Made by a program: the position numbers and the translations under genes. Positions 3-10,665 of a stretch of DNA of 12,398 bases are shown here, piece by piece. The number at the start of each line of letters is the position of its first letter. The stretch's first letter is position 1. Below the pieces are notes generated by a model, which had not been told where the DNA came from, did no database searches, and worked only from the letters and a program-made list of their open reading frames with translations. The stretch is from Candidatus Glassbacteria bacterium (lineage in GTDB: Bacteria > Gemmatimonadota > Glassbacteria > GWA2-58-10), in the NCBI GenBank assembly GCA_016934095.1, contig JAFGTO010000244.1, positions 1 through 12,398 of the forward strand. The letters run 5' to 3'.

Positions 3-1916
3 TTCCGCAGCAACCGGAAGAACCTCGACCGGATGCTGTACAGCAAGGGAGCCGCCCTGATGGAGTCGGTGCTGCACGACGCTGAGAACGCAGTGCTTGC
101 AGAGCGCGAGATCTCGGAACAGCTCGCCTCCCGCCTGGCGGATAACGCCAGGTACGCCCTGATGCTGGCCGACCGGGGAGCGCAGGCCGGGCGGTCGCTG
201 GCAGCCGCGGCCGCGGAGAACGGGCTGGTCCGCCTGGAGGTGTACGGTCCGGACGGGGGACTGATCGCAACTAGCGACCCGCGCGGCTCACCCGGAATGC
301 TGCCCGCATCCCTGGATGGCCTGGCCGCCGGGGATGAGCCGCTTATCAGGCTGATCCAGGACCCGGCGGGATCCGGGAACGAGCTCCTGGCGGCCGCCGT
401 GCGGGGTGGGGACGGCCGGGCGGGAGTGGCCTATGCCCTGTCGGATGAGCTCTTCGCGCTCCAGCGCCGGCTGGGAATCGGCCTGATCCTCGACGACCTC
501 TCCGCAGTGGAGGGGGTGGCTTACGCCGTGCTCCAGGACACTCTGGGGATCATCGCGGCCTCGAGCGACGTGGTGGAAATCGGCAGTATCGGCAAGGACC
601 CGTTCTTCCCCCTGGCCGCCGGGGAGATCAAGGGGCGCCGCCTGGATTTCTTCGGCGAGGAGGTCTACGAGCTGGCCGCCCTGTTCCAGCTCGGCGGCGA
701 GAGTTTCGGTTACCTGAGGGTCGGGCTCTCGACTGAAGAAGTACGCTCGATTGCCGAGCTGGACCGCAAGAGGTTCGGTTTCGGCATGGCGGTGCTGGCC
801 GTGCTGGCCGCGGTGGCTGTGCTGCTCTACTTTTTCCGCCTCCGCCACCTGCACCTGGAGCAGGAGCACTCGCGCATCAAGAGCTTCTCGGACAGCGTGC
901 TCGAATCCATGGGCGATGCGGTGATTGTCGCCGACCGGGACGGCAGGGTCCTGCTGGTCAACCGTGTCGCCGAAAAGCTATGCGGCACCGACCGGCCGCC
1001 CCTGCCGGGCCGCATGCTCTCGGAGGTGGCTCCCGGCCTGGCGGAAAAGCTCGGAAGCCTGGACACAGATGAGCCGCTGGTCTTGGAGACCGAGCTGCCC
1101 CGGCCCGGCTCTGCAGGACCGCTGCCCGTGCTGGCCACCGCCTCACCCTTATTGGTTGCCGGCAGCCGCTACACTACGGTTATCCTGCGCGACCTGACCG
1201 ACCGCAAGCGCGCCGAGGAGCTGGCCCTGCGCAACGAGAAGTACCAGGTCATGGCCGAGGTCTCGGCCTCGGTGGCCCACGAGATCCGCAACCCGCTCAA
1301 CGCGATCGGGATGAATGTCCAGCGCCTCAAGATGGAGTTCACCCCGCAGGAGGGGAGCCGGGGAGAATACGAGGAGTTCATCGAGATAATCCGCCGCGAG
1401 GTGGAGAGGATCAACGGGATAGTCGAACAGTACCTGACCCTGGCCCGTTTCCCCGGGCCGAAAAAAGAAATGGCGAGGATCGACAGGCTGCTGGCCGATA
1501 CCCTGCAGTTTTTCGCTGCCGAGCTCGCCGGGCGGCGGATCGCGGTGAAAGCGGATATCGCGCCCGCCGGGCCGTTCCCTTTCGATCCCGGGCAGTTGAG
1601 ACAGGTTTTCACCAACCTGATCAAGAACGCCGCCGAAGCCATTGAAAGCGAGGGGACCCTGCTGGTGGCCGGACGCCCGCTGCCGGGGTACTACCAGGTC
1701 TCCGTGCAGGACAGCGGCCCCGGGATCCCCGCAAGCGTGCGGGACAAGGTTTTCGAGCCGTTTTTCAGCACCAAGCAAAGTGGGCTGGGTCTTGGATTGG
1801 CCATTGTCCAGCGCATTGTCGCCGAGCACGGGGGTAATATATCCCTGGAAAGCAGCGGCCGGCCGGGGACCACTTTCGTGGTCACCCTGCCTGCAGACAA
1901 GGAGGATAAAACATGA
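3..1916 (+). CDS. Sensor histidine kinase (periplasmic sensor domain, TM, PAS, HisKA, HATPase_c); 5' end probably truncated by the window edge
   Basis: Frame is open from base 3 and the first in-window Met is at 33. There is no RBS before 33 and no N-terminal TM, so the true start is probably upstream. TM segment FGFGMAVLAVLAAVAVLLYFF. PAS-like SVLESMGDAVIVADRDGRVLLVN. H-box SASVAHEIRNPLNAIGMNVQRL. N-box LIKNAAEAI. G-boxes QDSGPGIP and GLGLGLAIVQRIVAEHGG. Strong GC3 codon bias. Confidence 0.85.
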   Translation, partial: FRSNRKNLDRMLYSKGAALMESVLHDAENAVLAEREISEQLASRLADNARYALMLADRGAQAGRSLAAAAAENGLVRLEVYGPDGGLIATSDPRGSPGMLPASLDGLAAGDEPLIRLIQDPAGSGNELLAAAVRGGDGRAGVAYALSDELFALQRRLGIGLILDDLSAVEGVAYAVLQDTLGIIAASSDVVEIGSIGKDPFFPLAAGEIKGRRLDFFGEEVYELAALFQLGGESFGYLRVGLSTEEVRSIAELDRKRFGFGMAVLAVLAAVAVLLYFFRLRHLHLEQEHSRIKSFSDSVLESMGDAVIVADRDGRVLLVNRVAEKLCGTDRPPLPGRMLSEVAPGLAEKLGSLDTDEPLVLETELPRPGSAGPLPVLATASPLLVAGSRYTTVILRDLTDRKRAEELALRNEKYQVMAEVSASVAHEIRNPLNAIGMNVQRLKMEFTPQEGSRGEYEEFIEIIRREVERINGIVEQYLTLARFPGPKKEMARIDRLLADTLQFFAAELAGRRIAVKADIAPAGPFPFDPGQLRQVFTNLIKNAAEAIESEGTLLVAGRPLPGYYQVSVQDSGPGIPASVRDKVFEPFFSTKQSGLGLGLAIVQRIVAEHGGNISLESSGRPGTTFVVTLPADKEDKT

Positions 1917-3268
1917 AAAGCCACCGTATCCTGGTGGTGGAGGACGAGGAGAACCAGCGCCGCACCCTGGCCGGTTTCCTGAGGAAAAAGGGTTACCGGA
2001 CCGAAGAGGCCCCTTCCGGGGAGGCCGCCCTGGAGCTTGTCCGCAAGCACCTTTACGACCTGGTCCTGACCGACCAGAAAATGGGGGGCATCGGCGGCCT
2101 GGAGCTGCTCAGGGAGGTCAAGGCCGCCAACCCGGAAATCGAGGTGGTCCTGCTGACCGCCTTCGGAGACCTCCGCTCCGCGGTCCAGGCGGTCCGCCAG
2201 GGCGCTTTCGACTACCTGGCCAAGCCGGTGGACCTGGAAGAGCTGGAGCTGACCCTCGAGCGGGCCCTGGAGCGCAGGCAGCTCGTGGTGGAAAACCGGA
2301 TGCTTCGCGAGTCGCTCGGCGAGCGGCAGAGCTTCGAGGAGATCATCTCCGTCAGCGATGCCATGGAGTCTGTGCTCAACATGGCTTCCCGGGTGGCCCG
2401 GGTCGACTCTCCCGTGCTGATCACCGGGGAGTCCGGCACCGGCAAGGAGATGGTGGCCAAGACGATCCACCAGGCCAGCGTGCGCAGGGACCAGCCTTTC
2501 GTGGCGGTAAACTGCGCCGCCCTGAACCAGAACCTCATCGAGAGCGAGCTGTTCGGCCACGAGAAAGGGGCCTTCACCGGCGCCATCCGTCAGCGCCAAG
2601 GCAAACTCGAGTCCGCCGACAGGGGGACCCTGTTCCTCGATGAGCTCGGGGAGATCAGCCCCGAGATCCAGGTTAAACTGCTGCGCTTTCTCCAAGAGCA
2701 CTCGTTCGAGCGGGTCGGCTCGGACCAGGTGCAGCAGGCGGACGTGCGCCTGATCGCCGCTACCAACCGCGACCTGGAGGCAGCCATCCGTCAGGGCGAT
2801 TTCCGCGAAGATTTCTACTACCGGATCAACGTGGTCAATATCCAGATCCCGCCCCTGCGCTCGCGCAGGGAGGACATCCGCCCGCTGATTGATTTCTTCC
2901 TGCAGAGAAACCGCGAGCGTCTCGGGCCGAAGACCTTCTCCAGGCAGGCGCTCGACTCCCTGCTGCGCTACGATTTCCCGGGAAACATCCGGGAGCTGCA
3001 GAACGTGGTCGAGCGGGCCATGGTGCTGGCCAGGAACGAGGTGGTCGACCTGGCCGACCTGCCCCCCTCGGTCACTGCCAGACAGGATAACTTTCCCGGT
3101 GTCCGCGAAATCGGCGGCTCGCTCACCGAGGAGATAGAGAACCTGGAAAGGCGCATGATTACCGCCGCCCTGGAATCCTGCGACAAGGTTCAGGTGCGGG
3201 CCGCGGAAAAGCTGGGAATCACGGAAAGGAACCTGCGCTACAAGATGAAAAAGCTGGGAATCAAATAA
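1913..3268 (+). CDS. Sigma-54-dependent response regulator, NtrC/AtoC/ZraR family (REC + AAA+ sigma-54 activator + Fis-type HTH)
   Basis: Start ATG 1913 overlaps the kinase stop TGA 1914-1916 (ATGA coupling), with a GGAGGA RBS at 1901-1906. REC domain with phospho-acceptor LVLTDQKMGG. Walker A GESGTGKE. GAFTGA motif ESELFGHEKGAFTGA. Walker B/arginine-finger region. C-terminal HTH AAEKLGITERNLRYKMKKLGI. Confidence 0.9.
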   Translation: MKSHRILVVEDEENQRRTLAGFLRKKGYRTEEAPSGEAALELVRKHLYDLVLTDQKMGGIGGLELLREVKAANPEIEVVLLTAFGDLRSAVQAVRQGAFDYLAKPVDLEELELTLERALERRQLVVENRMLRESLGERQSFEEIISVSDAMESVLNMASRVARVDSPVLITGESGTGKEMVAKTIHQASVRRDQPFVAVNCAALNQNLIESELFGHEKGAFTGAIRQRQGKLESADRGTLFLDELGEISPEIQVKLLRFLQEHSFERVGSDQVQQADVRLIAATNRDLEAAIRQGDFREDFYYRINVVNIQIPPLRSRREDIRPLIDFFLQRNRERLGPKTFSRQALDSLLRYDFPGNIRELQNVVERAMVLARNEVVDLADLPPSVTARQDNFPGVREIGGSLTEEIENLERRMITAALESCDKVQVRAAEKLGITERNLRYKMKKLGIK

Positions 3269-3300
3269 GCTTTCGATAAAAAGGATGGAAATTTCGTGTT

Positions 3301-3340
3301 TTCGACCAATTGGTCGAACAACTCTCGACAAAAATGTCGA
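3301..3340. promoter_or_regulatory. Tandem palindromes, candidate enhancer (UAS) sites for the adjacent NtrC-type activator
   Basis: Perfect 18-bp palindrome TTCGACCAATTGGTCGAA at 3301-3318. Second dyad TCGACA-AAAA-TGTCGA at 3325-3340. Centres lie about 160 and about 140 bp upstream of the predicted sigma-54 start site. An AT-rich tract between them and the promoter (3341-3440) is typical of a bending region. Confidence 0.45.
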
Positions 3341-3446
3341 TAATATAGATTTATTTATTTTCCAGGGAAATCCCGCCGGTATTTTTTCGCGTATAACCTG
3401 TTGAAATTCAAATGATTAAGGGTTTCAAATATATTTCAGACAATTT

Positions 3447-3461
3447 TGGCACCGTTCTTGA
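3447..3461 (+). promoter_or_regulatory. Sigma-54 (-24/-12) promoter candidate
   Basis: TGGCACC-GTTC-TTGA matches TGGCACG-N4-TTGCW. The GG and GA(C) elements have the exact 10-nt spacing, with only the -12 C replaced by A. It lies about 75 bp upstream of ATG 3537, directly downstream of a sigma-54 activator gene. Confidence 0.55.
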
Positions 3462-3536
3462 TTAAGGTAAGGGTGCGCGCATCGATTTTATCTTTCGCAG
3501 TATCAGCTTACCTTTAAAGAGCAGAGGAGGTGCCGG

Positions 3537-4388
3537 ATGAAAACCCTGAAAATTCTGCCGGTAATCACTTTTATCGGCGCATTGATGACTTTGAATCCCG
3601 GACTGTACGCCCAGGATGCCGATGACGCAGCCGCGGACGATGGGGCCGCTGTAGCGACGCCCCTGGGCGGAGCCTACCGCCACGGCATGAGGGATGTCGG
3701 GTTCCGCGGCTTTACCGACGAGGACGGCAACGGGCTCAACGACTATCTAGAGGACTCGGACGGCGACGGGGTGGTCAACGCCCACGACCCGGACAGCGAC
3801 CTTTATCGCGGCGAGCCGGGTACGGCTCTGGGACGCGGCCTGGGCTTCGTGGATGAGGACGGCAACGGGCTCAACGACTATCTAGAGGACTCGGACGGCG
3901 ACGGGGTGATCAACGCCCACGACTCCGACAGCCCGCTCTACCGCGACCCCCGCGCCAGGGGCGCTTTCGGGCGCGGCCTGAGCTTTGTGGATGAGGACGG
4001 CAACGGGATCAACGACCGTCTCGAGGACTCGGACGGCGACGGGGTGATCAACGCCCACGACCCGGACAGCCCGCTCTACCGCGACCCCAGCGCCAGGGGC
4101 GTTTTCGGGCGCAGGCTCCGCTTCATCGATGAGAACGGCGACGGTGTCAGCGACTGCCTCGAGGACTCGGACGGCGACGGGGTGATCAACTCCCTCGACC
4201 CCGACAGCCCGCTGTATCGCGGCAGCGCGGCCGGGAACACGGTCAGGGGCGCACGCCTCGGCTCGGCCGGCAAGACTGTCATGCAGCGCGGGTCGGCTTT
4301 CAGCGGACAGTCGCGCTCTACCGGAAGGGCAAGAGTGAGAACGCCCGGGAGCTGCACAACCGCTCCCGCCGGCAGCGGCAGCAATTAA
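3537..4388 (+). CDS. Secreted acidic repeat protein with tandem DxDxDG (thrombospondin type 3 / EF-hand-like) calcium-binding loops
   Basis: RBS AGAGGAGG at 3524-3530. Signal peptide MKTLKILPVITFIGALMTLNPGLYA|QD. About 3.7 copies of a 45-46 aa unit EDGNGLNDYLEDSDGDGVINAHDPDSPLYRDP.ARGAFGRGLSFVD. Each unit carries two back-to-back 12-residue loops, DEDGNGLNDYLE and DSDGDGVINAHD, fitting DxDxDGxxDxxE/D. Confidence 0.8.
   Translation: MKTLKILPVITFIGALMTLNPGLYAQDADDAAADDGAAVATPLGGAYRHGMRDVGFRGFTDEDGNGLNDYLEDSDGDGVVNAHDPDSDLYRGEPGTALGRGLGFVDEDGNGLNDYLEDSDGDGVINAHDSDSPLYRDPRARGAFGRGLSFVDEDGNGINDRLEDSDGDGVINAHDPDSPLYRDPSARGVFGRRLRFIDENGDGVSDCLEDSDGDGVINSLDPDSPLYRGSAAGNTVRGARLGSAGKTVMQRGSAFSGQSRSTGRARVRTPGSCTTAPAGSGSN
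3720..4217 (+). repeat. In-frame tandem DNA repeat, 135-138 bp unit, about 3.7 copies, inside CDS 3537-4388
   Basis: Units begin at 3720, 3855, 3993 and 4131 with GAGGACGGCAACGGG...GAGGACTCGGACGGCGACGGGGTG(A/G)TCAACGCCCACGAC. Copies 1-3 are nearly identical at the nucleotide level and copy 4 is more diverged. Confidence 0.85.
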
Positions 4389-4405
4389 CGATTCTGCAGT
4401 TCTGC

Positions 4406-4437
4406 AGCCCGGGAGCCTCGTACCCGAGGCTCCCGGG
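4406..4437 (+). terminator. GC-rich hairpin (14-bp stem, 4-nt loop) between the two repeat-protein genes; possible intra-operon attenuator or partial terminator
   Basis: GCCCGGGAGCCTCG-TACC-CGAGGCTCCCGGGC is a perfect inverted repeat 18 nt after stop 4388, preceded by the direct repeat TTCTGCAG x2. It is followed by an A-rich tract (AGATAAAACAAACAAAA) rather than a U-tract, so it is not a canonical intrinsic terminator. Confidence 0.35.
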
Positions 4438-4464
4438 CAGATAAAACAAACAAAATCACGGATC

Positions 4465-5136
4465 ATGGGTAAAAGAATTACATACGGCGCGGCAGTGGCG
4501 ATTTTTCTTTTTTGCGGCACTCTTTCCGCACAGCAGGAAAAGGCCCGGCCGGAGACTCGGAAATCAACGGTCCAGCCCGGCGGGTCCGCAGCCCAAAAAG
4601 CAGCCGACAATAAAGAACCCCAGACGCCTGTCGCCGTATTCGGCTTCCAGGACCGGGACCGCGACGGCAAGAACGACCTGTTCCGGGACGCCGACGGCGA
4701 CGGGATCAACGATATCACCAAGAAACCCTACCCTCACAAGTTCAAGTTCGCAGATGAGGACGAGGATAAAATCAACGACTTGTTCGTGGATGCCGACGGC
4801 GACGGGGTGAACGACCTTGAAGTCAAGTTTATCGATGCCGACAGCGACGGGATCAACGACAATATCATCGATGTCGACAAGAACCATATCAACGACATCA
4901 CCGGCCTGCGCTATACCAGCAAGTCCCTGCGGGGGTACAAGTACGGTTTTATCAAGGAGGAGCGCCTGCTGATGATGCGCGGCTTCATCGATGAAGACGG
5001 GGACGGGATCGCGGATGCACCCCGGGGCATGATGCTCAGAAAAGGCATGCGCGACCGGATTATCGACCGGGACGGCGACGGGATCGACGACAGGAGGGAG
5101 ATGATGCGCAAATTCAGACCAGGACCCAGGAGATAG
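4465..5136 (+). CDS. Secreted paralogous DxDGDG-loop repeat protein (degenerate Ca-binding loop repeats)
   Basis: Signal peptide MGKRITYGAAVAIFLFCGTLSA|QQ. Loops DRDRDGKND, DADGDGINDI, DEDEDKINDL, DADGDGVNDL, DADSDGINDN, DEDGDGIADA, DRDGDGIDDR. Codon composition is more AT-rich than the first paralog. Ends TAG 5134-5136, 3 nt before the next start. Confidence 0.75.
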   Translation: MGKRITYGAAVAIFLFCGTLSAQQEKARPETRKSTVQPGGSAAQKAADNKEPQTPVAVFGFQDRDRDGKNDLFRDADGDGINDITKKPYPHKFKFADEDEDKINDLFVDADGDGVNDLEVKFIDADSDGINDNIIDVDKNHINDITGLRYTSKSLRGYKYGFIKEERLLMMRGFIDEDGDGIADAPRGMMLRKGMRDRIIDRDGDGIDDRREMMRKFRPGPRR

Positions 5137-5139
5137 GCA

Positions 5140-6405
5140 ATGAAAAAATTCGGCTTGCTAGGCCTGATACCGCTTTTCCTCTGGGCCGGGATGCTCCGGG
5201 CCCAGAAAGAAGTCAGCGTGGGGACCCACATGCTGGCTGACGACAATATCTTCCGCAACCACACAGGACAGGGCGACTTTGTCGCTGTACCTTACGCCGA
5301 CCTAGGCTACCAGTTCAGTCCCGGCCAGGACACGGAGACACTGGACCTGTTCTACCTAGGCTATTCAGGGCAGTTTTTCCTTTTCCGCGAGCTGAGCCGG
5401 AGGGACTTCTCCGTGCACGGCTTCTCCGCACACTACAACCACCTCTGGCCCGAGTCGCGCAACCTGCTCGCTGTCGGCGGCAAGGTGGAAACCAGGCTCA
5501 ACCCGGAAGACTACAAGTATTTCAACTATACCTCGGGCGGATTTTACCTGAACTACAAGAGATACCTCAGGGAAGACCTGATGCTGCTGGCCGGGTACAA
5601 CCTTACCGGCAAGAACTTTTCCGAATTCCCGGAGTTCAATTACCTGGAAAACATCTTTTCCATCCAGACCAGCCTGTTCCTGCAATCCAGGACCACCCTG
5701 CGGTTTTCCGCCAATTACTACCACAAGAACTACCTCAACAGTATCTCTACTCTGGACTCGGTTTTTGTCGAGCCGCCCCCGGTTTCCGGGCCCATGCCCG
5801 GCATGGGCTATGGATACGGCCGCGGGATGTTCCTCAGGAACCTGTTCCCGGAGGATGTTGGCGAAGGTTTCTACTCGTACCGCATGCGTGCCGATGAATT
5901 CCCCAGCACCGACCAGTTCAAGCTGGGTTTCACAGTGGCCCAGGGCCTGGCCGAGGGCACGGGGATCACCGCGGGCTACACCGCCCGGCTCAACCCCCGC
6001 AACCGCAACCGCTACCTGTCCAACCTCGGCGAATCGGTGCTGAACAATGAAGAGCTTTTCGACGACCACTACAGCTACCTGGGCCACGAGGGCACTTTGC
6101 AGCTCAAGCAAATGCTGCCTGCAGAGTCGATACTGACCCTGATGTTCACCGTGCGCAGCCGCCGTTTCAGCGACCGGCCAGCCCTGGACCTCGAGGGCTA
6201 CCCGCTGCCCTCCGGAGAGGACCGGCGGGACAGGGCTGTGCTTTTCGAGGCCGAGTTCACCAAGCGGCTCAGGCCCGGCATTTCCTGGATCACCGACAAC
6301 CTCGAGCTCTCGGTCGGGTTCGGCCTGGGCAGCAACAGCTCGAACGACCAGTATTACGATTTCAACGACAAATATTTCATTTTCGCCCTGGAAAAAGCCT
6401 TCTAG
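5140..6405 (+). CDS. Putative outer-membrane beta-barrel protein (no heme motif)
   Basis: RBS AGGAGA at 5126-5131. Signal peptide MKKFGLLGLIPLFLWAGMLRA|QKE. High Tyr/Gly/Asn/Ser content with alternating aromatic/hydrophobic patterning typical of amphipathic beta-strands. C-terminus ...YFIFALEKAF ends in Phe as in Bam-dependent OMPs. Co-transcribed with the two repeat proteins. Confidence 0.7.
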   Translation: MKKFGLLGLIPLFLWAGMLRAQKEVSVGTHMLADDNIFRNHTGQGDFVAVPYADLGYQFSPGQDTETLDLFYLGYSGQFFLFRELSRRDFSVHGFSAHYNHLWPESRNLLAVGGKVETRLNPEDYKYFNYTSGGFYLNYKRYLREDLMLLAGYNLTGKNFSEFPEFNYLENIFSIQTSLFLQSRTTLRFSANYYHKNYLNSISTLDSVFVEPPPVSGPMPGMGYGYGRGMFLRNLFPEDVGEGFYSYRMRADEFPSTDQFKLGFTVAQGLAEGTGITAGYTARLNPRNRNRYLSNLGESVLNNEELFDDHYSYLGHEGTLQLKQMLPAESILTLMFTVRSRRFSDRPALDLEGYPLPSGEDRRDRAVLFEAEFTKRLRPGISWITDNLELSVGFGLGSNSSNDQYYDFNDKYFIFALEKAF

Positions 6406-6534
6406 CTCCGCCCTCTCCGCGACCTGGCGCAAGGGAATCCCGTGCCCCCTGCCTCATGCCGCTGCATTTTCTCCGCCCCTCACCATTTTCATGATACAGC
6501 GGACTCACTGTAGCCCGGATACGGTCAATAAGTC

Positions 6535-6563
6535 TTGATTTAATCAGGCGGATATGGTAGCAT
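6535..6563 (+). promoter_or_regulatory. Possible sigma-70-type promoter for the encapsulin operon
   Basis: TTGATT (6535-6540), a 17-bp spacer, then TAGCAT (6558-6563), in the AT-richer spacer about 100 bp upstream of the EncFtn start. Weak matches only. Confidence 0.3.
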
Positions 6564-6669
6564 TTAACAGAGCCGCAAAAATGACCTCCGGGCCCGCCCT
6601 CTCGAGCCCGGCGCCAAATACTTTCAGGCGAAGACATCCTTGAACCTGCCCATCAGAGAGGAGTTTTCC

Positions 6670-7038
6670 ATGAGCAGTACTTATCATGAACCATCCCAGG
6701 AGCTGCCTCCGGAAGTCCGCGATACCCATCGCGCACTGGCGAGCCTGATCGAAGAGCTGGAGGCTATCGACTGGTATAACCAGCGGGCCTCTCTCACCAC
6801 CGACCCGGAGCTCAAAGAGATTGTCCAGCACAACCGGGACGAGGAAATCGAACATGCGGCCATGGCCCTGGAATGGCTGCGCAGGAGGATCCCCAAATTC
6901 GACGAGGAACTGAAGACCTACCTGTTCTCTTCCGGCCCCATTACCGAAATAGAAGAAGCCCTGGCAAAAGAACCTGCTGAAAACGACGCGCCGGCCCCGG
7001 GCAGCCTGGGAATCGGCTCGCTGCGAAAGGAGAGCTGA
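6670..7038 (+). CDS. Encapsulated ferritin-like protein (EncFtn) with C-terminal encapsulin cargo-loading peptide
   Basis: RBS AGAGGAG at 6654-6660, 9 nt before ATG 6670. The track start at 6640 is a TTG with no RBS, so 6670 is preferred. EncFtn signature EELEAIDWYNQRA...DPELKEIVQHNRDEEIEHAAMALEWLRRR (metal-binding Glu/His residues). C-terminal tail ...PGSLGIGSLRKES matches the GSLxIGSLK-type encapsulin targeting peptide. The stop lies 2 nt before the shell gene. Confidence 0.85.
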   Translation: MSSTYHEPSQELPPEVRDTHRALASLIEELEAIDWYNQRASLTTDPELKEIVQHNRDEEIEHAAMALEWLRRRIPKFDEELKTYLFSSGPITEIEEALAKEPAENDAPAPGSLGIGSLRKES

Positions 7039-7040
7039 CG

Positions 7041-7841
7041 ATGAGCGACATTCTGCGACGTTCACTGGCTCCGCTGACGGAAGCCGCCTGGAAGGAAATC
7101 GACAGGACGGCCTCGAACATCCTCAAAGCAAGCCTCACCGGGCGCAAGCTGGTTGACTGCGACGGGCCCCACGGCCTGGAGCTGGGTGCGGTGAACCTGG
7201 GCCGCCTGGCAATCCCCGAGAAACATAAGAGGGCGGGTGTAAGCTGGGGCGTGCGCGAGGTGCTGCCGCTGGTGGAGTTACGGGTACCCTTCCAGCTCGA
7301 CCAGATGGAGCTGGACTCGATCTCCAGGGGCTCGAAGGATGTCGACCTGGGTCCGCTGGAAAAAGCCGCCAGGGCAGTGGTCGATTTCGAGGAATCCGCA
7401 ATCTACAAAGGCTTTCCGGAGGCCAGGGTCCAGGGCATACTCAAAGCCGCAAAACACGCCCCGCTCAAGATCCCCGCCGCACGCGAAGACTGCCCCAAGG
7501 CCGTGGCCGAGGGGATCAAGCTGCTGTCCGAGGCGGGAATCGAGGGGCCTTACGCGCTGGTCCTCTGCCTGGAGTGCTACCATGAGCTGATCGCCACCGC
7601 CAAGGGATACCCTACTTTCCGGGTGGCGGAGCGCCTGGTGGAAGGCGGGATATTCTACAGCAGCGCCCTCAAGGGCGGCGTGCTGCTGTCCGTGCGCGGC
7701 GGAGATTTCGAGCTGACCCTGGGCCAGGATATCTCCATCGGCTTCTCGGGCTGCACCGCGGACAAAGTGGAGCTCTATTTTGCCGAGTCTTTCACTTTCC
7801 GCGTGCTGGAGCCGCTGGCCGCTGTCGAGCTGAAACCCTGA
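7041..7841 (+). CDS. Family 1 encapsulin nanocompartment shell protein (HK97 fold; Linocin_M18 family)
   Basis: RBS AAAGGAGAG at 7026-7034. Sequence is collinear with the T. maritima encapsulin: LRRSLAPLTEAAWKEID, GRKLVDCDGPHG, WGVREVLPLVELRVPFQL..ELD..RG..DVDLGPLE, GIEGPYALV, RGGDFELTLGQDISIGF, ESFTFRVLEP. The 266-aa length is typical. Confidence 0.9.
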   Translation: MSDILRRSLAPLTEAAWKEIDRTASNILKASLTGRKLVDCDGPHGLELGAVNLGRLAIPEKHKRAGVSWGVREVLPLVELRVPFQLDQMELDSISRGSKDVDLGPLEKAARAVVDFEESAIYKGFPEARVQGILKAAKHAPLKIPAAREDCPKAVAEGIKLLSEAGIEGPYALVLCLECYHELIATAKGYPTFRVAERLVEGGIFYSSALKGGVLLSVRGGDFELTLGQDISIGFSGCTADKVELYFAESFTFRVLEPLAAVELKP

Positions 7842-7899
7842 CCCCGCGGTATAATCAGGGAACGGGCGCCGGACGGACTTGGACCGTTTGTTTACCCGA

Positions 7900-7935
7900 G
7901 GGGCACATTTATGCATGTGCCCCATTTTATTCTCC
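7900..7935 (+). terminator. Rho-independent terminator after the encapsulin operon
   Basis: GGGGCACAT-TTATGC-ATGTGCCCC (9-bp stem, 6-nt loop) followed by ATTTTATTCT, about 60 bp after stop 7841. Confidence 0.6.
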
Positions 7936-8004
7936 TGATTGCCGTAAGCTGCCTGACAGTACTGATGCAGAAACCGCTGATATCAGCCAGGGTGCCGGGG
8001 TAAA

Positions 8005-8080
8005 ATCGTGTTACTTTTTCTAAATATTAACGTTAAAAAATACCGGGATTATCTGTCATTCCAGCCGGTATAAATTCATC
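8005..8080 (+). promoter_or_regulatory. AT-rich putative promoter region for the cytochrome operon
   Basis: TTACTT (8011-8016) is spaced 17 bp from TAAAAA (8034-8039). A strong -10-like GGTATAAAT sits at 8067-8075 with a poor -35. No TGGCAC-type sigma-54 element was seen here. The exact promoter is unresolved. Confidence 0.25.
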
Positions 8081-8111
8081 CAATTAAATCTTACCTGATG
8101 AAAGGGTTTAT

Positions 8112-9473
8112 ATGCGATCAGCCCGTAAAGTCTTAGCTGTCGTTGTCATTGGCACGGTTGTGGCGGGAGCGGGCTTACTGGCCCAGGTCAAGGCAGGCGA
8201 CGCCGCCCATGGCACCAGGCAGTACGACCAGTATAAAAAACCCAAGTTCTGCGGTACTTCCTGCCATACCGACTTCTATCGCCAGTGGCGCCAGGAGATG
8301 CACTCCCAGGCCTATGTCCACCACTGGGACGAGATCGAGTATTTCAAGCTGGCCGTGCCCCACGCGGAAAAAGACCCGGCCGTGGCCGGGGTCAGGGATG
8401 GCTGTAATGGCTGCCATGCGCCGGTGTCTTTCCTGGCGGGCGACACCCCTCCGCCCAGGCCCGAGGAAAACAGCCGGGCCAACGAAGCTGTCACCTGCGA
8501 CCTGTGCCATACTATCACCGGTTTCGAGTCAGACACTCCCCACAACTTCAACTATTATTCCGAGCCGGGGAACGTGAAATACGGGCCCAGGGGCGGGGTA
8601 ACCTCTCCTGAGCACGTGATCGAGGTCAGCAAGTTCCTGCCTTCCGCAGAGTTCTGCGGCACCTGCCATAACGAGAAAAGCCCTTACGGGGTATGGGTCA
8701 AATCGACCCACCTCGAGTGGAAGGAAGGGCCTTACGCAGCCGAGGGAGTCCCCTGCCACGACTGCCACATGCCAAGGGCCGAGGGCAGGAGGGCCTCGAT
8801 GGGTAAGGCCTACCCGGACATCCGTCAGCACCTGTTCCACGGCGCTCACGACAACGGCAAGATCAGGGGCACGGTGGAGCTGCGCATCCACCCGGATATC
8901 GATGAGACCGAGCCGGGCGAAAAAGTGGTCTTTACCGTGGTGCTCTTCAACCAGAAAGCCGGCCACAAGTTCCCCACCGGCTCGGTGGAGGACCGGATTG
9001 TCTGGCTGCATGTCGAGGCCACCGATGCCCAGGGCAAGGTCTATCACCTGCCGGTGGACCCCAAGGGTTTCGAGGGGGAAGAGTATACGATCGCCCGGGA
9101 CGTCCTGGCCTACCAGGACATGGGCATAGCGCTGAACGACCCCGGCTTCCAGGGCGTGCAGCGGGATGGGGTCCCGGTGGGAGACCGTATTTTCCGCATG
9201 CCCTATTTCGACCCCCAGGGCCGGATGACGATCCAGCAGTGGAACACCAAGAGCCTGGGTGTAGACTACCGGATACCCCCCAGGGGTACCAGGGTGGAGA
9301 CTTTCTCCTTCAGCCTGCCGTTCGAGGTCGCCCCGGGCAGGATGACTGTCGAAGCCACGCTCAACTACAGCAAGCTGGTCAAACCGGTGGCAGAGCTGCT
9401 CGAGGTGCCGCCGGATGAAACTGAAACAGTTGTGGTCAACGAGCATTCTACCGTAATCAACGTATTCGACTGA
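8112..9473 (+). CDS. Multiheme c-type cytochrome (five heme-binding motifs) with a C-terminal heme-free, probably beta-sandwich, domain
   Basis: Signal or anchor peptide MRSARKVLAVVVIGTVVAGAGLLAQVKA. Heme motifs CGTSCH (CX3CH), CNGCH, CDLCH, CGTCH and CHDCHMP. The GVPCHDCHMPRAEG segment resembles the NrfA-family CxDCHMP heme, but the family's distal heme is missing. The last about 200 aa are Cys-free. Confidence 0.85.
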   Translation: MRSARKVLAVVVIGTVVAGAGLLAQVKAGDAAHGTRQYDQYKKPKFCGTSCHTDFYRQWRQEMHSQAYVHHWDEIEYFKLAVPHAEKDPAVAGVRDGCNGCHAPVSFLAGDTPPPRPEENSRANEAVTCDLCHTITGFESDTPHNFNYYSEPGNVKYGPRGGVTSPEHVIEVSKFLPSAEFCGTCHNEKSPYGVWVKSTHLEWKEGPYAAEGVPCHDCHMPRAEGRRASMGKAYPDIRQHLFHGAHDNGKIRGTVELRIHPDIDETEPGEKVVFTVVLFNQKAGHKFPTGSVEDRIVWLHVEATDAQGKVYHLPVDPKGFEGEEYTIARDVLAYQDMGIALNDPGFQGVQRDGVPVGDRIFRMPYFDPQGRMTIQQWNTKSLGVDYRIPPRGTRVETFSFSLPFEVAPGRMTVEATLNYSKLVKPVAELLEVPPDETETVVVNEHSTVINVFD

Positions 9474-9483
9474 AGAAGGAAAA

Positions 9484-10665
9484 ATGAAAAAAAAGACGTT
9501 TTACACCCTGGTCTTTTCCCTGGCGGCCGCCGGTCTGTGTTCCATCTTTACGGCCGAGTCCGCCTATGCTGTCCCGGCTTTCGCCAGGAAATACCGGCTG
9601 AGCTGCAAGACCTGCCACCAGCCGATCCCCAGGCTGAAACCTTATGGGGATGAATTCGCCGGCAACGGTTTCGTGCTCACCGACCAGGAAGCGCCCAGGT
9701 ATTTTGTCGAGACCGGGGACGACGAGCTCTCGCTGATCCGGGATTTCCCCATCGCCGTGCGCCTGGAAGGGTTCATCAACTACAACGACGTGGCGGGAAA
9801 AAGGTCGGACTTCAACACTCCATACCTGTTGAAGCTGCTCTCCGGCGGGGCCCTGACCAAAAACATCGCCTATTACTTCTATTTCTACATGGATGAGAGA
9901 GGAGAGGTGGCCGGTGTCGAGGACGCCTATGTCATGTTCAACAACCTGCTGGGAGTCGACCTGGATATCTACGCAGGCCAGTTCCAGGTCTCCGACCCCC
10001 TGTTCAAGCGGGAGCTGCGCCTGACCCTGGAGGACTACCAGGCCTACAAGTCCACTCCGGGCCGCTCGGGGATAAACCTGACCTATGACAGGGGTATCAT
10101 GGTAACTTACGGGTTGCCCAGCGGCACCGACCTGATTTTCGAGGTGGTCAACGGCAACGGCTTGAGCGAGGCGGACGAGGACAAGAACTTCGACTCCGAC
10201 AGGTACAAGAATTTCATGGGACGCATCTCCCAGGATGTCGGTAAATACCTGCGCCTGGGTGTGTTCGGCTACACCGGCCGGGAAAAGAGCGCCGGCCGGC
10301 TGAACCAGGCCTGGCTGGCCGGTCCCGACCTGACAGTGTCAATCAACGAAAAGTTCGAGCTGAACCTGCAGTATGTCGAGAGAAGGGACACCAACCCTTA
10401 TTTCCTCAGCTCCGGCTACCGGGACCTCAAGACCAGGGGCGCGCTCGGCGAGATGGTGATCGCCCCCCGGGGCAGCGACGGCAAGGTCTACCTGGTGGGG
10501 CTGTTCAACTGGACAGACTCGGACGACAATTCGGAGGATTTCAAGAGCCTGACCGGTCATCTCAGCTACCTGCTGCGCAGGAACATCCGTCTGGTCGGCG
10601 AGGTAACCCACAACTGGGCCAATGATACCAACCGCCTCGGCGTGGGTTTTGTCTCGGCGTTCTAG
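9484..10665 (+). CDS. cyc2: Cyc2-like fused monoheme cytochrome c-porin (outer membrane; candidate Fe(II) oxidase or extracellular electron conduit)
   Basis: RBS GAAGGAAAA, start 11 nt after the cytochrome stop. Signal peptide MKKKTFYTLVFSLAAAGLCSIFTAESAYA|VP. A single CKTCH heme motif lies within 15 residues of the mature N-terminus inside PAFARKYRLSCKTCHQP, which matches the conserved N-terminal cytochrome module of Cyc2. The remaining about 340 aa are rich in Tyr/Gly/Asn beta-strand patterning and end GVGFVSAF (terminal Phe), consistent with a porin barrel. The family assignment is from memory, not from a search. Confidence 0.6.
   Translation: MKKKTFYTLVFSLAAAGLCSIFTAESAYAVPAFARKYRLSCKTCHQPIPRLKPYGDEFAGNGFVLTDQEAPRYFVETGDDELSLIRDFPIAVRLEGFINYNDVAGKRSDFNTPYLLKLLSGGALTKNIAYYFYFYMDERGEVAGVEDAYVMFNNLLGVDLDIYAGQFQVSDPLFKRELRLTLEDYQAYKSTPGRSGINLTYDRGIMVTYGLPSGTDLIFEVVNGNGLSEADEDKNFDSDRYKNFMGRISQDVGKYLRLGVFGYTGREKSAGRLNQAWLAGPDLTVSINEKFELNLQYVERRDTNPYFLSSGYRDLKTRGALGEMVIAPRGSDGKVYLVGLFNWTDSDDNSEDFKSLTGHLSYLLRRNIRLVGEVTHNWANDTNRLGVGFVSAF

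Follow-up and report, generated by a model that had tools for sequence, protein, structure and literature searches.

In encapsulin systems of family 1 the primary cargo gene is located directly upstream of the shell gene, and such systems with Flp/EncFtn cargo are spread over 23 bacterial phyla with frequent horizontal transfer (Andreas and Giessen 2021, PMC8346489). The described system that comes closest to the one reported here is the EncFtn:encapsulin complex of the myxobacterium Haliangium ochraceum (7oe2, 7odw, 7oeu; PMC8791618). Its ferritin-like cargo EncFtn carries the peptide 117-GSLGIGSLR-125, which Ross et al. (2022, PMC8791618) built into electron cryo-microscopy density at the inner face of the shell P-domain, the core targeting motif being defined there as GxLGIxxL. 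For EncFtn from Rhodospirillum rubrum (Rru_A0973, 5da5) the residues E32, E62 and H65 are the ligands of the ferroxidase centre; they have been validated by mutation and, together with Y39, are required for activity (PMC11202242). The encapsulin of the thermophilic Thermotoga maritima (maritimacin; 3dkt, 7kq5) likewise forms a T=1 shell of family 1, and its ferritin-like cargo, Flp, bears a C-terminal tag. Iron-mineralising encapsulins with ferritin-like cargo are also represented by EncA-EncBCD of Myxococcus xanthus and the IMEF system of Quasibacillus thermotolerans, which form T=3/T=4 shells from longer shell proteins (278–294 amino acids, aa) and have other cargo sets.

Here we analysed a stretch of 12,398 nucleotides (nt) from an uncultured Candidatus Glassbacteria bacterium, called the window in the following, which carries an EncFtn gene and an encapsulin shell gene next to each other. 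A first-pass annotation made from the letters of this DNA had proposed an EncFtn-encapsulin iron-storage operon at this place. With a probability of roughly 0.92 we regard the pair as a classical (family 1) encapsulin iron-storage system. It has the same two-gene architecture as the pair from H. ochraceum, from which it differs in its host, a member of Glassbacteria/Gemmatimonadota and not a myxobacterium, and in its position inside a cytochrome/porin locus. The following features make up the cassette.

6670–7841, + strand: EncFtn-encapsulin cassette
6659–6663, + strand: Shine-Dalgarno sequence AGGAG, 6 nt before the EncFtn ATG (read from the sequence)
6670–7038, + strand: EncFtn gene for a 122-aa encapsulated ferritin-like cargo (PF22277, TIGR04535 and PDB matches)
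7000–7026, + strand: cargo-loading (targeting) peptide GSLGIGSLR, residues 111–119, followed by KES; identical to the H. ochraceum peptide
7028–7032, + strand: Shine-Dalgarno sequence AGGAG of the shell gene, still within the EncFtn gene at its 3' end and 8 nt before the shell ATG (read from the sequence)
7041–7841, + strand: gene for the 266-aa shell protein of a family 1 encapsulin with HK97 fold and predicted T=1 (PF04454, NF041155, PDB 7odw, AlphaFold2 model)

Cargo and shell genes

Profile hidden Markov models (HMMs) placed both proteins in the expected families. The cargo matches the EncFtn-like family PF22277 of Pfam (E = 9.5e-41, 137.9 bits, cutoff 27) and TIGR04535 of NCBIfam, ‘encapsulin-associated ferritin-like protein’ (153.9 bits, curated cutoff 125). 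The product of 7041–7841 covers the whole Linocin_M18 profile PF04454 (E = 6e-80, 268.6 bits, cutoff 24.3) and matches the NCBIfam equivalog NF041155, ‘family 1 encapsulin nanocompartment shell protein’, with 280.3 bits (cutoff 100). As the HMM E-values for the two proteins span 1e-41 to 1e-84, a chance origin of both genes is excluded. The identity of the operon proposed by the first-pass annotation, which had named searches against Linocin_M18 and the EncFtn family as the way to check it, was therefore borne out by four models above their cutoffs. Among solved structures EncFtn from H. ochraceum (7oe2, 1.3e-36) is the top match of the cargo, followed by that from R. rubrum (5da5, 1e-31), both gapless over the fold, and the shell finds its best counterpart in H. 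ochraceum 7odw (1.6e-66), with T=1 shells from T. maritima, Mycobacterium, Klebsiella and Escherichia coli coming next. The system is biologically routine with thousands of relatives in the databases (6724 matches for EncFtn and 2660 for the shell), and it adds one more intact EncFtn/T=1 encapsulin pair from the poorly known Candidatus Glassbacteria, a class within the Gemmatimonadota.

The cargo gene had originally been described as starting at 6640 and encoding 123 aa. The placement of the open reading frame could be kept, but not its start and length. The longest frame (6640–7038) begins with TTG and would encode 132 aa. The true start is the ATG at 6670 giving a protein of 122 aa, because it is preceded by the AGGAG at 6659–6663, because all homologues in an alignment of 15 sequences have MS/MA-x-YHEP as their N-terminus, and because an identical 122-aa protein (P0241) of a Candidatus Glassbacteria metagenome-assembled genome, annotated as ‘ferritin’, is on record in the public database. 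The stop codon TGA at 7036–7038 is separated from the shell ATG at 7041 by 2 nt, exactly as stated in the first-pass annotation. By analogy with the characterised homologues both genes are co-transcribed, and they are probably also translationally coupled, since the gap is that short and the ribosome-binding site of the shell gene lies inside the cargo gene.

The metal-site signature claimed for the cargo is intact. The ferroxidase residues E29, E59 and H62, together with Y36, correspond to E32, E62, H65 and Y39 from R. rubrum with a constant offset of 3 and no gaps, and the segment E59-I-E-H62 fits the ExxH motif. The additional metal-site residues flanking the ferroxidase centre can be assigned in the same way, with E28, E31 and W35 being equivalent to E31, E34 and W38, and H54, E58 and E61 to H57, E61 and E64. 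All of these positions are invariant in the alignment of the 15 homologues except E31, which is found in at least 90% of the sequences. Over residues 2–95 the cargo shows 57% identity to the R. rubrum protein, gapless and with all metal sites matched, and its identity to EncFtn from H. ochraceum is about 53% over the folded domain. From these homologues of 53–57% identity we infer that the protein would form an annular D5 decamer that is ferroxidase-active but has no storage capacity of its own.

An intact targeting peptide of the GSLxIGSLK type had been noticed at the C-terminus of the cargo, and we could confirm it. The protein ends with ...APAPGSLGIGSLRKES, in which a linker of about 14 residues precedes GSLGIGSLR. 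The peptide fits both GxLGIxxL and the pattern L-x-[VI]-x-x-[LI] and agrees with residues 117–125 of EncFtn from H. ochraceum in all 9 positions, so that the loading peptides of the two systems could serve interchangeably in encapsulin engineering. Its tail can also be set beside that of R. rubrum (...GSLGIGSLKGE versus ...GSLGIGSLRKES in the window), from which it differs in linker composition, and the tag of T. maritima has a different sequence. In size the window proteins compare with those of H. ochraceum as 266 versus 266 aa for the shell and 122 versus about 131 aa for EncFtn, the window cargo having the shorter linker between fold and peptide. No second motif resembling a targeting peptide, which would have pointed to a further cargo, was found in the six frames of the window.

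Predicted shell assembly and function

The structure of the shell protein was predicted with AlphaFold2 using 26 homologues, and the model was compared with the PDB using Foldseek. The model (mean predicted local distance difference test score, pLDDT, of 89.6) supports the HK97 fold that had been proposed and superposes on the H. ochraceum shell 7oe2_A with a template modelling (TM) score of 0.93 and a root-mean-square deviation (rmsd) of 1.8 Å at 46% identity in the Foldseek alignment, which, like the alignments to T=1 shells in general, is nearly free of gaps. Each of the first 27 Foldseek matches (TM 0.82–0.94) is either a T=1 family 1 shell or an engineered variant of such a shell. The T. 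maritima shell has a TM of 0.90, an E-value of 1.2e-56 and a lower identity of about 39%. In contrast, the T=3/T=4 shells from M. xanthus (EncA) and Q. thermotolerans reach a TM of 0.70–0.77 with an rmsd above 7 Å for the T=3/T=4 conformers and sequence E-values of only 1e-12 to 1e-9, indicating that the window shell is not of their type. The predicted fold is compact with an N-terminal helix at residues 14–31 and no extended N-arm. Because the model superposes on T=1 shells and the T=3/T=4 shells score lower, an assembly of 60 subunits with T=1 and a diameter of about 24 nm is most likely.

The NCBI entry of an identical shell protein (P0001) bears the name ‘bacteriocin family protein’. This name is a historical misannotation of the encapsulin family. 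Taken literally it would make the 266-aa protein a secreted ‘linocin-like bacteriocin’, and as encapsulins and phage capsids have the HK97 fold in common (PMC8346489) one might also think of a leftover HK97-type phage capsid instead of a compartment shell. Both ideas are hardly conceivable in view of the family 1 equivalog match with 280 bits, the family 1 N-terminal helix (H14–31) in a model that reaches a TM of 0.93 to encapsulin shells, and the dedicated cargo with its targeting peptide encoded directly upstream. Moreover, terminase, portal, protease and integrase genes are absent from the 12.4-kb window, and encapsulins are frequently misannotated (PMC8346489). All features by which family 1 Flp/EncFtn systems can be recognised from sequence, namely the shell family, the compact HK97 fold in the model, the upstream cargo, the C-terminal targeting peptide and a non-prophage context, are present in the pair, which we continue to treat as an encapsulin iron-storage system.

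The characterised systems of H. ochraceum, R. rubrum and T. maritima suggest by analogy how the present one would assemble and with which T number, and how it would package its cargo, oxidise iron and store it as a mineral. The shell protein would assemble into a T=1 icosahedral shell of 60 subunits and about 24 nm, and EncFtn would make ring-shaped decamers with di-iron ferroxidase centres (E29, E59 and H62, with Y36 nearby) at the subunit interfaces. The flexible tail with GSLGIGSLR may dock in a hydrophobic pocket at the inner face of the shell P-domain, by which the enzyme would become enclosed during shell formation. Fe(II) might then pass the shell pores and be oxidised by EncFtn, and the ferric mineral would stay in the shell lumen, buffering cytoplasmic iron and limiting Fenton chemistry.

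Transcription signals around the pair

Two elements flanking the cassette had been suggested as its borders.

7900–7933, + strand: intrinsic terminator with a 9-bp stem at 7900–7923 that includes 6 G-C pairs and closes a loop of 6 nt; tail ATTTTATTCT (scan and RNA fold)
6535–6563, + strand: candidate sigma-70 promoter TTGATT-17-TAGCAT, agreeing with 8 of 12 consensus positions; unsupported

The terminator, given as 7900–7935 in the first-pass annotation, proved to be sound, as it folds with -17 kcal/mol (z -3.59) and none of 200 shuffled sequences was equally stable. The promoter is not supported, since its 8 matches are below the threshold of 9 of 12 consensus positions used in our scan. Its proposed -35 hexamer is overlapped by a perfect palindrome, TGATT-T-AATCA at 6537–6547, which does not match the Fur-box consensus and could be an operator for some regulator.

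Other kinds of control elements were looked for as well. A sigma-54 element was not found within 2 mismatches in 6406–6669, and a sigma-54 promoter directly upstream of EncFtn was rejected, as the only good element in the window (3447–3462) precedes another gene. Neither the 265-nt leader nor the 270-nt trailer of the cassette gave an Rfam match to an RNA or riboswitch with E below 0.4. A GC-rich hairpin at 6588–6611 was discarded, its RNA structure being insignificant (z -1.46) and no U tract following on the + strand. A Fur box upstream of EncFtn was also dismissed: there is none in the leader, and the best matches in the window have 6–7 mismatches out of 19.

A Fur box would be typical of iron-starvation control, and its absence touches on the role of the compartment, for which both an iron reserve and a protection against iron and oxidative stress are compatible with the literature (PMC8346489). 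This absence would agree with a role mainly in protection, in which EncFtn and its shell remove surplus Fe(II) in a redox-fluctuating habitat rich in iron rather than provide a nutritional reserve, and the Cyc2-like cytochrome-porin and the multihaem cytochromes of the host (described below) do suggest an iron-rich niche. On the other hand, the lack of a Fur box of the E. coli type means little in this host phylum, protection is itself compatible with storage, and regulatory evidence points neither way. We therefore consider a mainly protective role possible rather than probable and keep to iron storage as the description of the system.

Behind the cassette a perfect TATAAT is located at 7851–7856, right after the stop codon of the shell gene. 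The AT-rich spacer before the next gene, a cytochrome gene, contains the promoter-like sequence CTGATA-18-TAAAAT at 7977–8006. This suggests that the cytochrome gene and the Cyc2-like gene following it are served by a promoter of their own located beyond the terminator of the cassette, and because of this terminator and the promoter-like site we regard them as a separate transcription unit.

Genomic neighbourhood and related loci

According to the listing of open reading frames every gene from 33 to 10665 is encoded on the + strand. The genes outside the cassette are the following; a DUF4234/DUF4328 membrane protein is also among the eight genes flanking it.

33–1916, + strand: histidine kinase
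1913–3268, + strand: NtrC-type sigma-54 response regulator
3537–4388, + strand: aspartate-rich repeat protein, no Pfam match
4465–5136, + strand: aspartate-rich repeat protein, no Pfam match
5140–6405, + strand: 421-aa protein ending in F, outer-membrane-type, no Pfam match
8112–9473, + strand: 453-aa multihaem cytochrome with four CXXCH and one CXXXCH motifs; NapC/NirT and c554 matches
9484–10665, + strand: 393-aa Cyc2-like protein

Keffer et al. (2021, PMC8406198) define Cyc2 proteins by a signal peptide, the motif AxPxFAR[Q/K][T/Y], a single CXXCH with a PxL downstream of it, a porin barrel and no fewer than 365 aa. The 393-aa protein shows a signal peptide, A28-VPAFARKY37, C41-KTCH45 and P49-R-L51, the latter four residues past the haem site, and it exceeds 365 aa. 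In its structural model a signal helix is followed by a beta-barrel, for which Foldseek returned 16-strand porins (E = 5e-12). Homologues of Cyc2 in Ignavibacteria are already in the literature, and Keffer et al. caution that Cyc2 function is uncertain outside cluster 1, in the divergent clusters (PMC8406198). The region 8112–10665 is plausible as a putative iron-oxidation module, judged by sequence, and to this extent the proposal that the encapsulin pair sits immediately upstream of such a module can be kept. The adjacency did not find a counterpart in relatives.

For this comparison we compiled the loci of relatives of the 393-aa protein, of which 80 were fetched as genomic loci and three were added by exact look-up, giving 83 in total. 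The multihaem cytochrome is encoded directly upstream of the Cyc2-like gene in 81 of them, and the two genes occur together with 55–80% identity in at least six phyla, the loci coming from Ignavibacteriota, Zixibacteria, Bacteroidota, Aminicenantes, KSB1 and Glassbacteria/Gemmatimonadota. Such a near-invariant multihaem partner upstream of the Cyc2-like gene may merit a separate study. Encapsulin or EncFtn genes were found within 10 kb in none of the 83 loci, and the adjacency of the encapsulin pair to the module is therefore lineage-specific and not conserved. The position of the cassette beside the Cyc2-like module may point to a host living under iron-rich conditions, but the linkage is not a conserved one.

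Synteny with the entire window is seen in two distinct loci, L004 (apparently identical in sequence to L007) and L009, both of which lack the cassette. They share with the window the kinase (52–59% identity), the regulator (71–74%), the repeat proteins (51–58%), the 421-aa protein (55–56%), the cytochrome (71–81%) and the Cyc2-like protein (60–65%). The genes for the 421-aa protein and the cytochrome are 1706 nt apart in the window; in L004 the gap measures 914 nt and in L009 roughly 220–300 nt, and remnants of the cassette could not be detected in the empty site of L004 by tblastn or blastn. As the syntenic relatives keep the flanking genes without the pair, the EncFtn-encapsulin pair is an accessory insert, varying by presence and absence, between the outer-membrane-type gene and the cytochrome and Cyc2-like module, and it behaves as a mobile two-gene cassette. 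Parsimony favours a gain at the window site over a loss from the relatives. Finding the cassette in the window and an empty equivalent site in syntenic relatives is of modest evolutionary value. A foreign base composition of the cassette had to be rejected, the GC content of 0.58–0.64 being the same as that of the flanks, and a search for flanking direct or inverted repeats and mobility genes returned only short repeats at chance level.

The linkage of cargo and shell was followed in relatives of the two proteins too. EncFtn is located directly upstream of the shell gene in all five metagenomic shell relatives and in L093. The closest shell relative, L002 (10001–10804, 66% identity), has no adjacent cargo gene, and the closest EncFtn relative on a long contig, L091 (8001–8381, 75% identity), stands alone with its tag GSLGIGSLRKET intact; none of the observations contradicts the reading as an encapsulin iron-storage system. 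RNA folding revealed no significant terminator in the interval from 6405 to 6670, so that the cassette transcript may begin upstream of this interval. As the shell of L002 and the EncFtn of L091 lack an adjacent partner, operon linkage is not universal in the clade. Both loci come from the same two JGI samples, and if their contigs belong to one organism, cargo and shell would be unlinked in the closest relatives. A kinase and a sigma-54 regulator lie beside the L002 shell gene as well; a specific link was rejected, as this regulator and the one in the window share only 37% identity, which corresponds to generic family similarity.

The interval without a terminator leaves room for a different view of the cassette, namely that it is coupled to the flanking locus. 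In the window a sigma-54 -24/-12 element, TGGCACCGTTCTTGAT, is located at 3447–3462, about 75 nt before the first repeat-protein gene, and it has counterparts at the same position in L004 (2839) and L009 (5200). The element fits the adjacent NtrC-type regulator (1913–3268) and the kinase (33–1916). Read-through from this conserved promoter under control of the kinase and the NtrC-type regulator could reach the cassette, as the genes from 33 to 10665 are all on the same strand and no significant terminator intervenes between 6405 and 6670, and the encapsulin might then serve the Cyc2/cytochrome iron-redox module as its iron sink in the cytoplasm; the equal GC content of cassette and flanks would also agree with this. 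However, no encapsulin or EncFtn gene was found within 10 kb in any of the 83 related loci of the cytochrome and Cyc2-like type, L004/L007 and L009 do without the cassette in spite of their full synteny, and the cassette has its own strong terminator with a promoter-like site following before the cytochrome gene. We therefore regard such a coupling as unlikely. A shade less likely still is the full scenario, in which the cassette was captured into the sigma-54-controlled outer-membrane cytochrome/Cyc2 locus and is co-expressed by read-through as an iron sink in the cytoplasm that is coupled to the redox chemistry of iron outside the cell. No link between encapsulins and Cyc2 was found in the literature searched, which counts against the coupling and would make a connection of encapsulins to Cyc2-type iron metabolism new, if true. 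The preferred reading remains that of a family 1 iron-storage cassette inserted into this locus.

The two repeat-protein genes are placed between the regulator and the 421-aa outer-membrane-type protein. Their products look secreted and contain repeats of the kind …EDSDGDGV(I)NAHDPDSPLYR…, which resemble calcium-binding repeats. They have no match in Pfam or NCBIfam and yet are found with 51–58% identity in the syntenic loci.

In the database records the locus L007 is labelled ‘archaeon isolate’, yet it appears to have the same sequence as the bacterial L004, as seen from the gene spacing and near-identical percent identities, and is probably mis-binned. The Glassbacteria-like loci L006 and L009 are labelled as Gemmatimonadales, in agreement with the treatment of Glassbacteria as a class of Gemmatimonadota.

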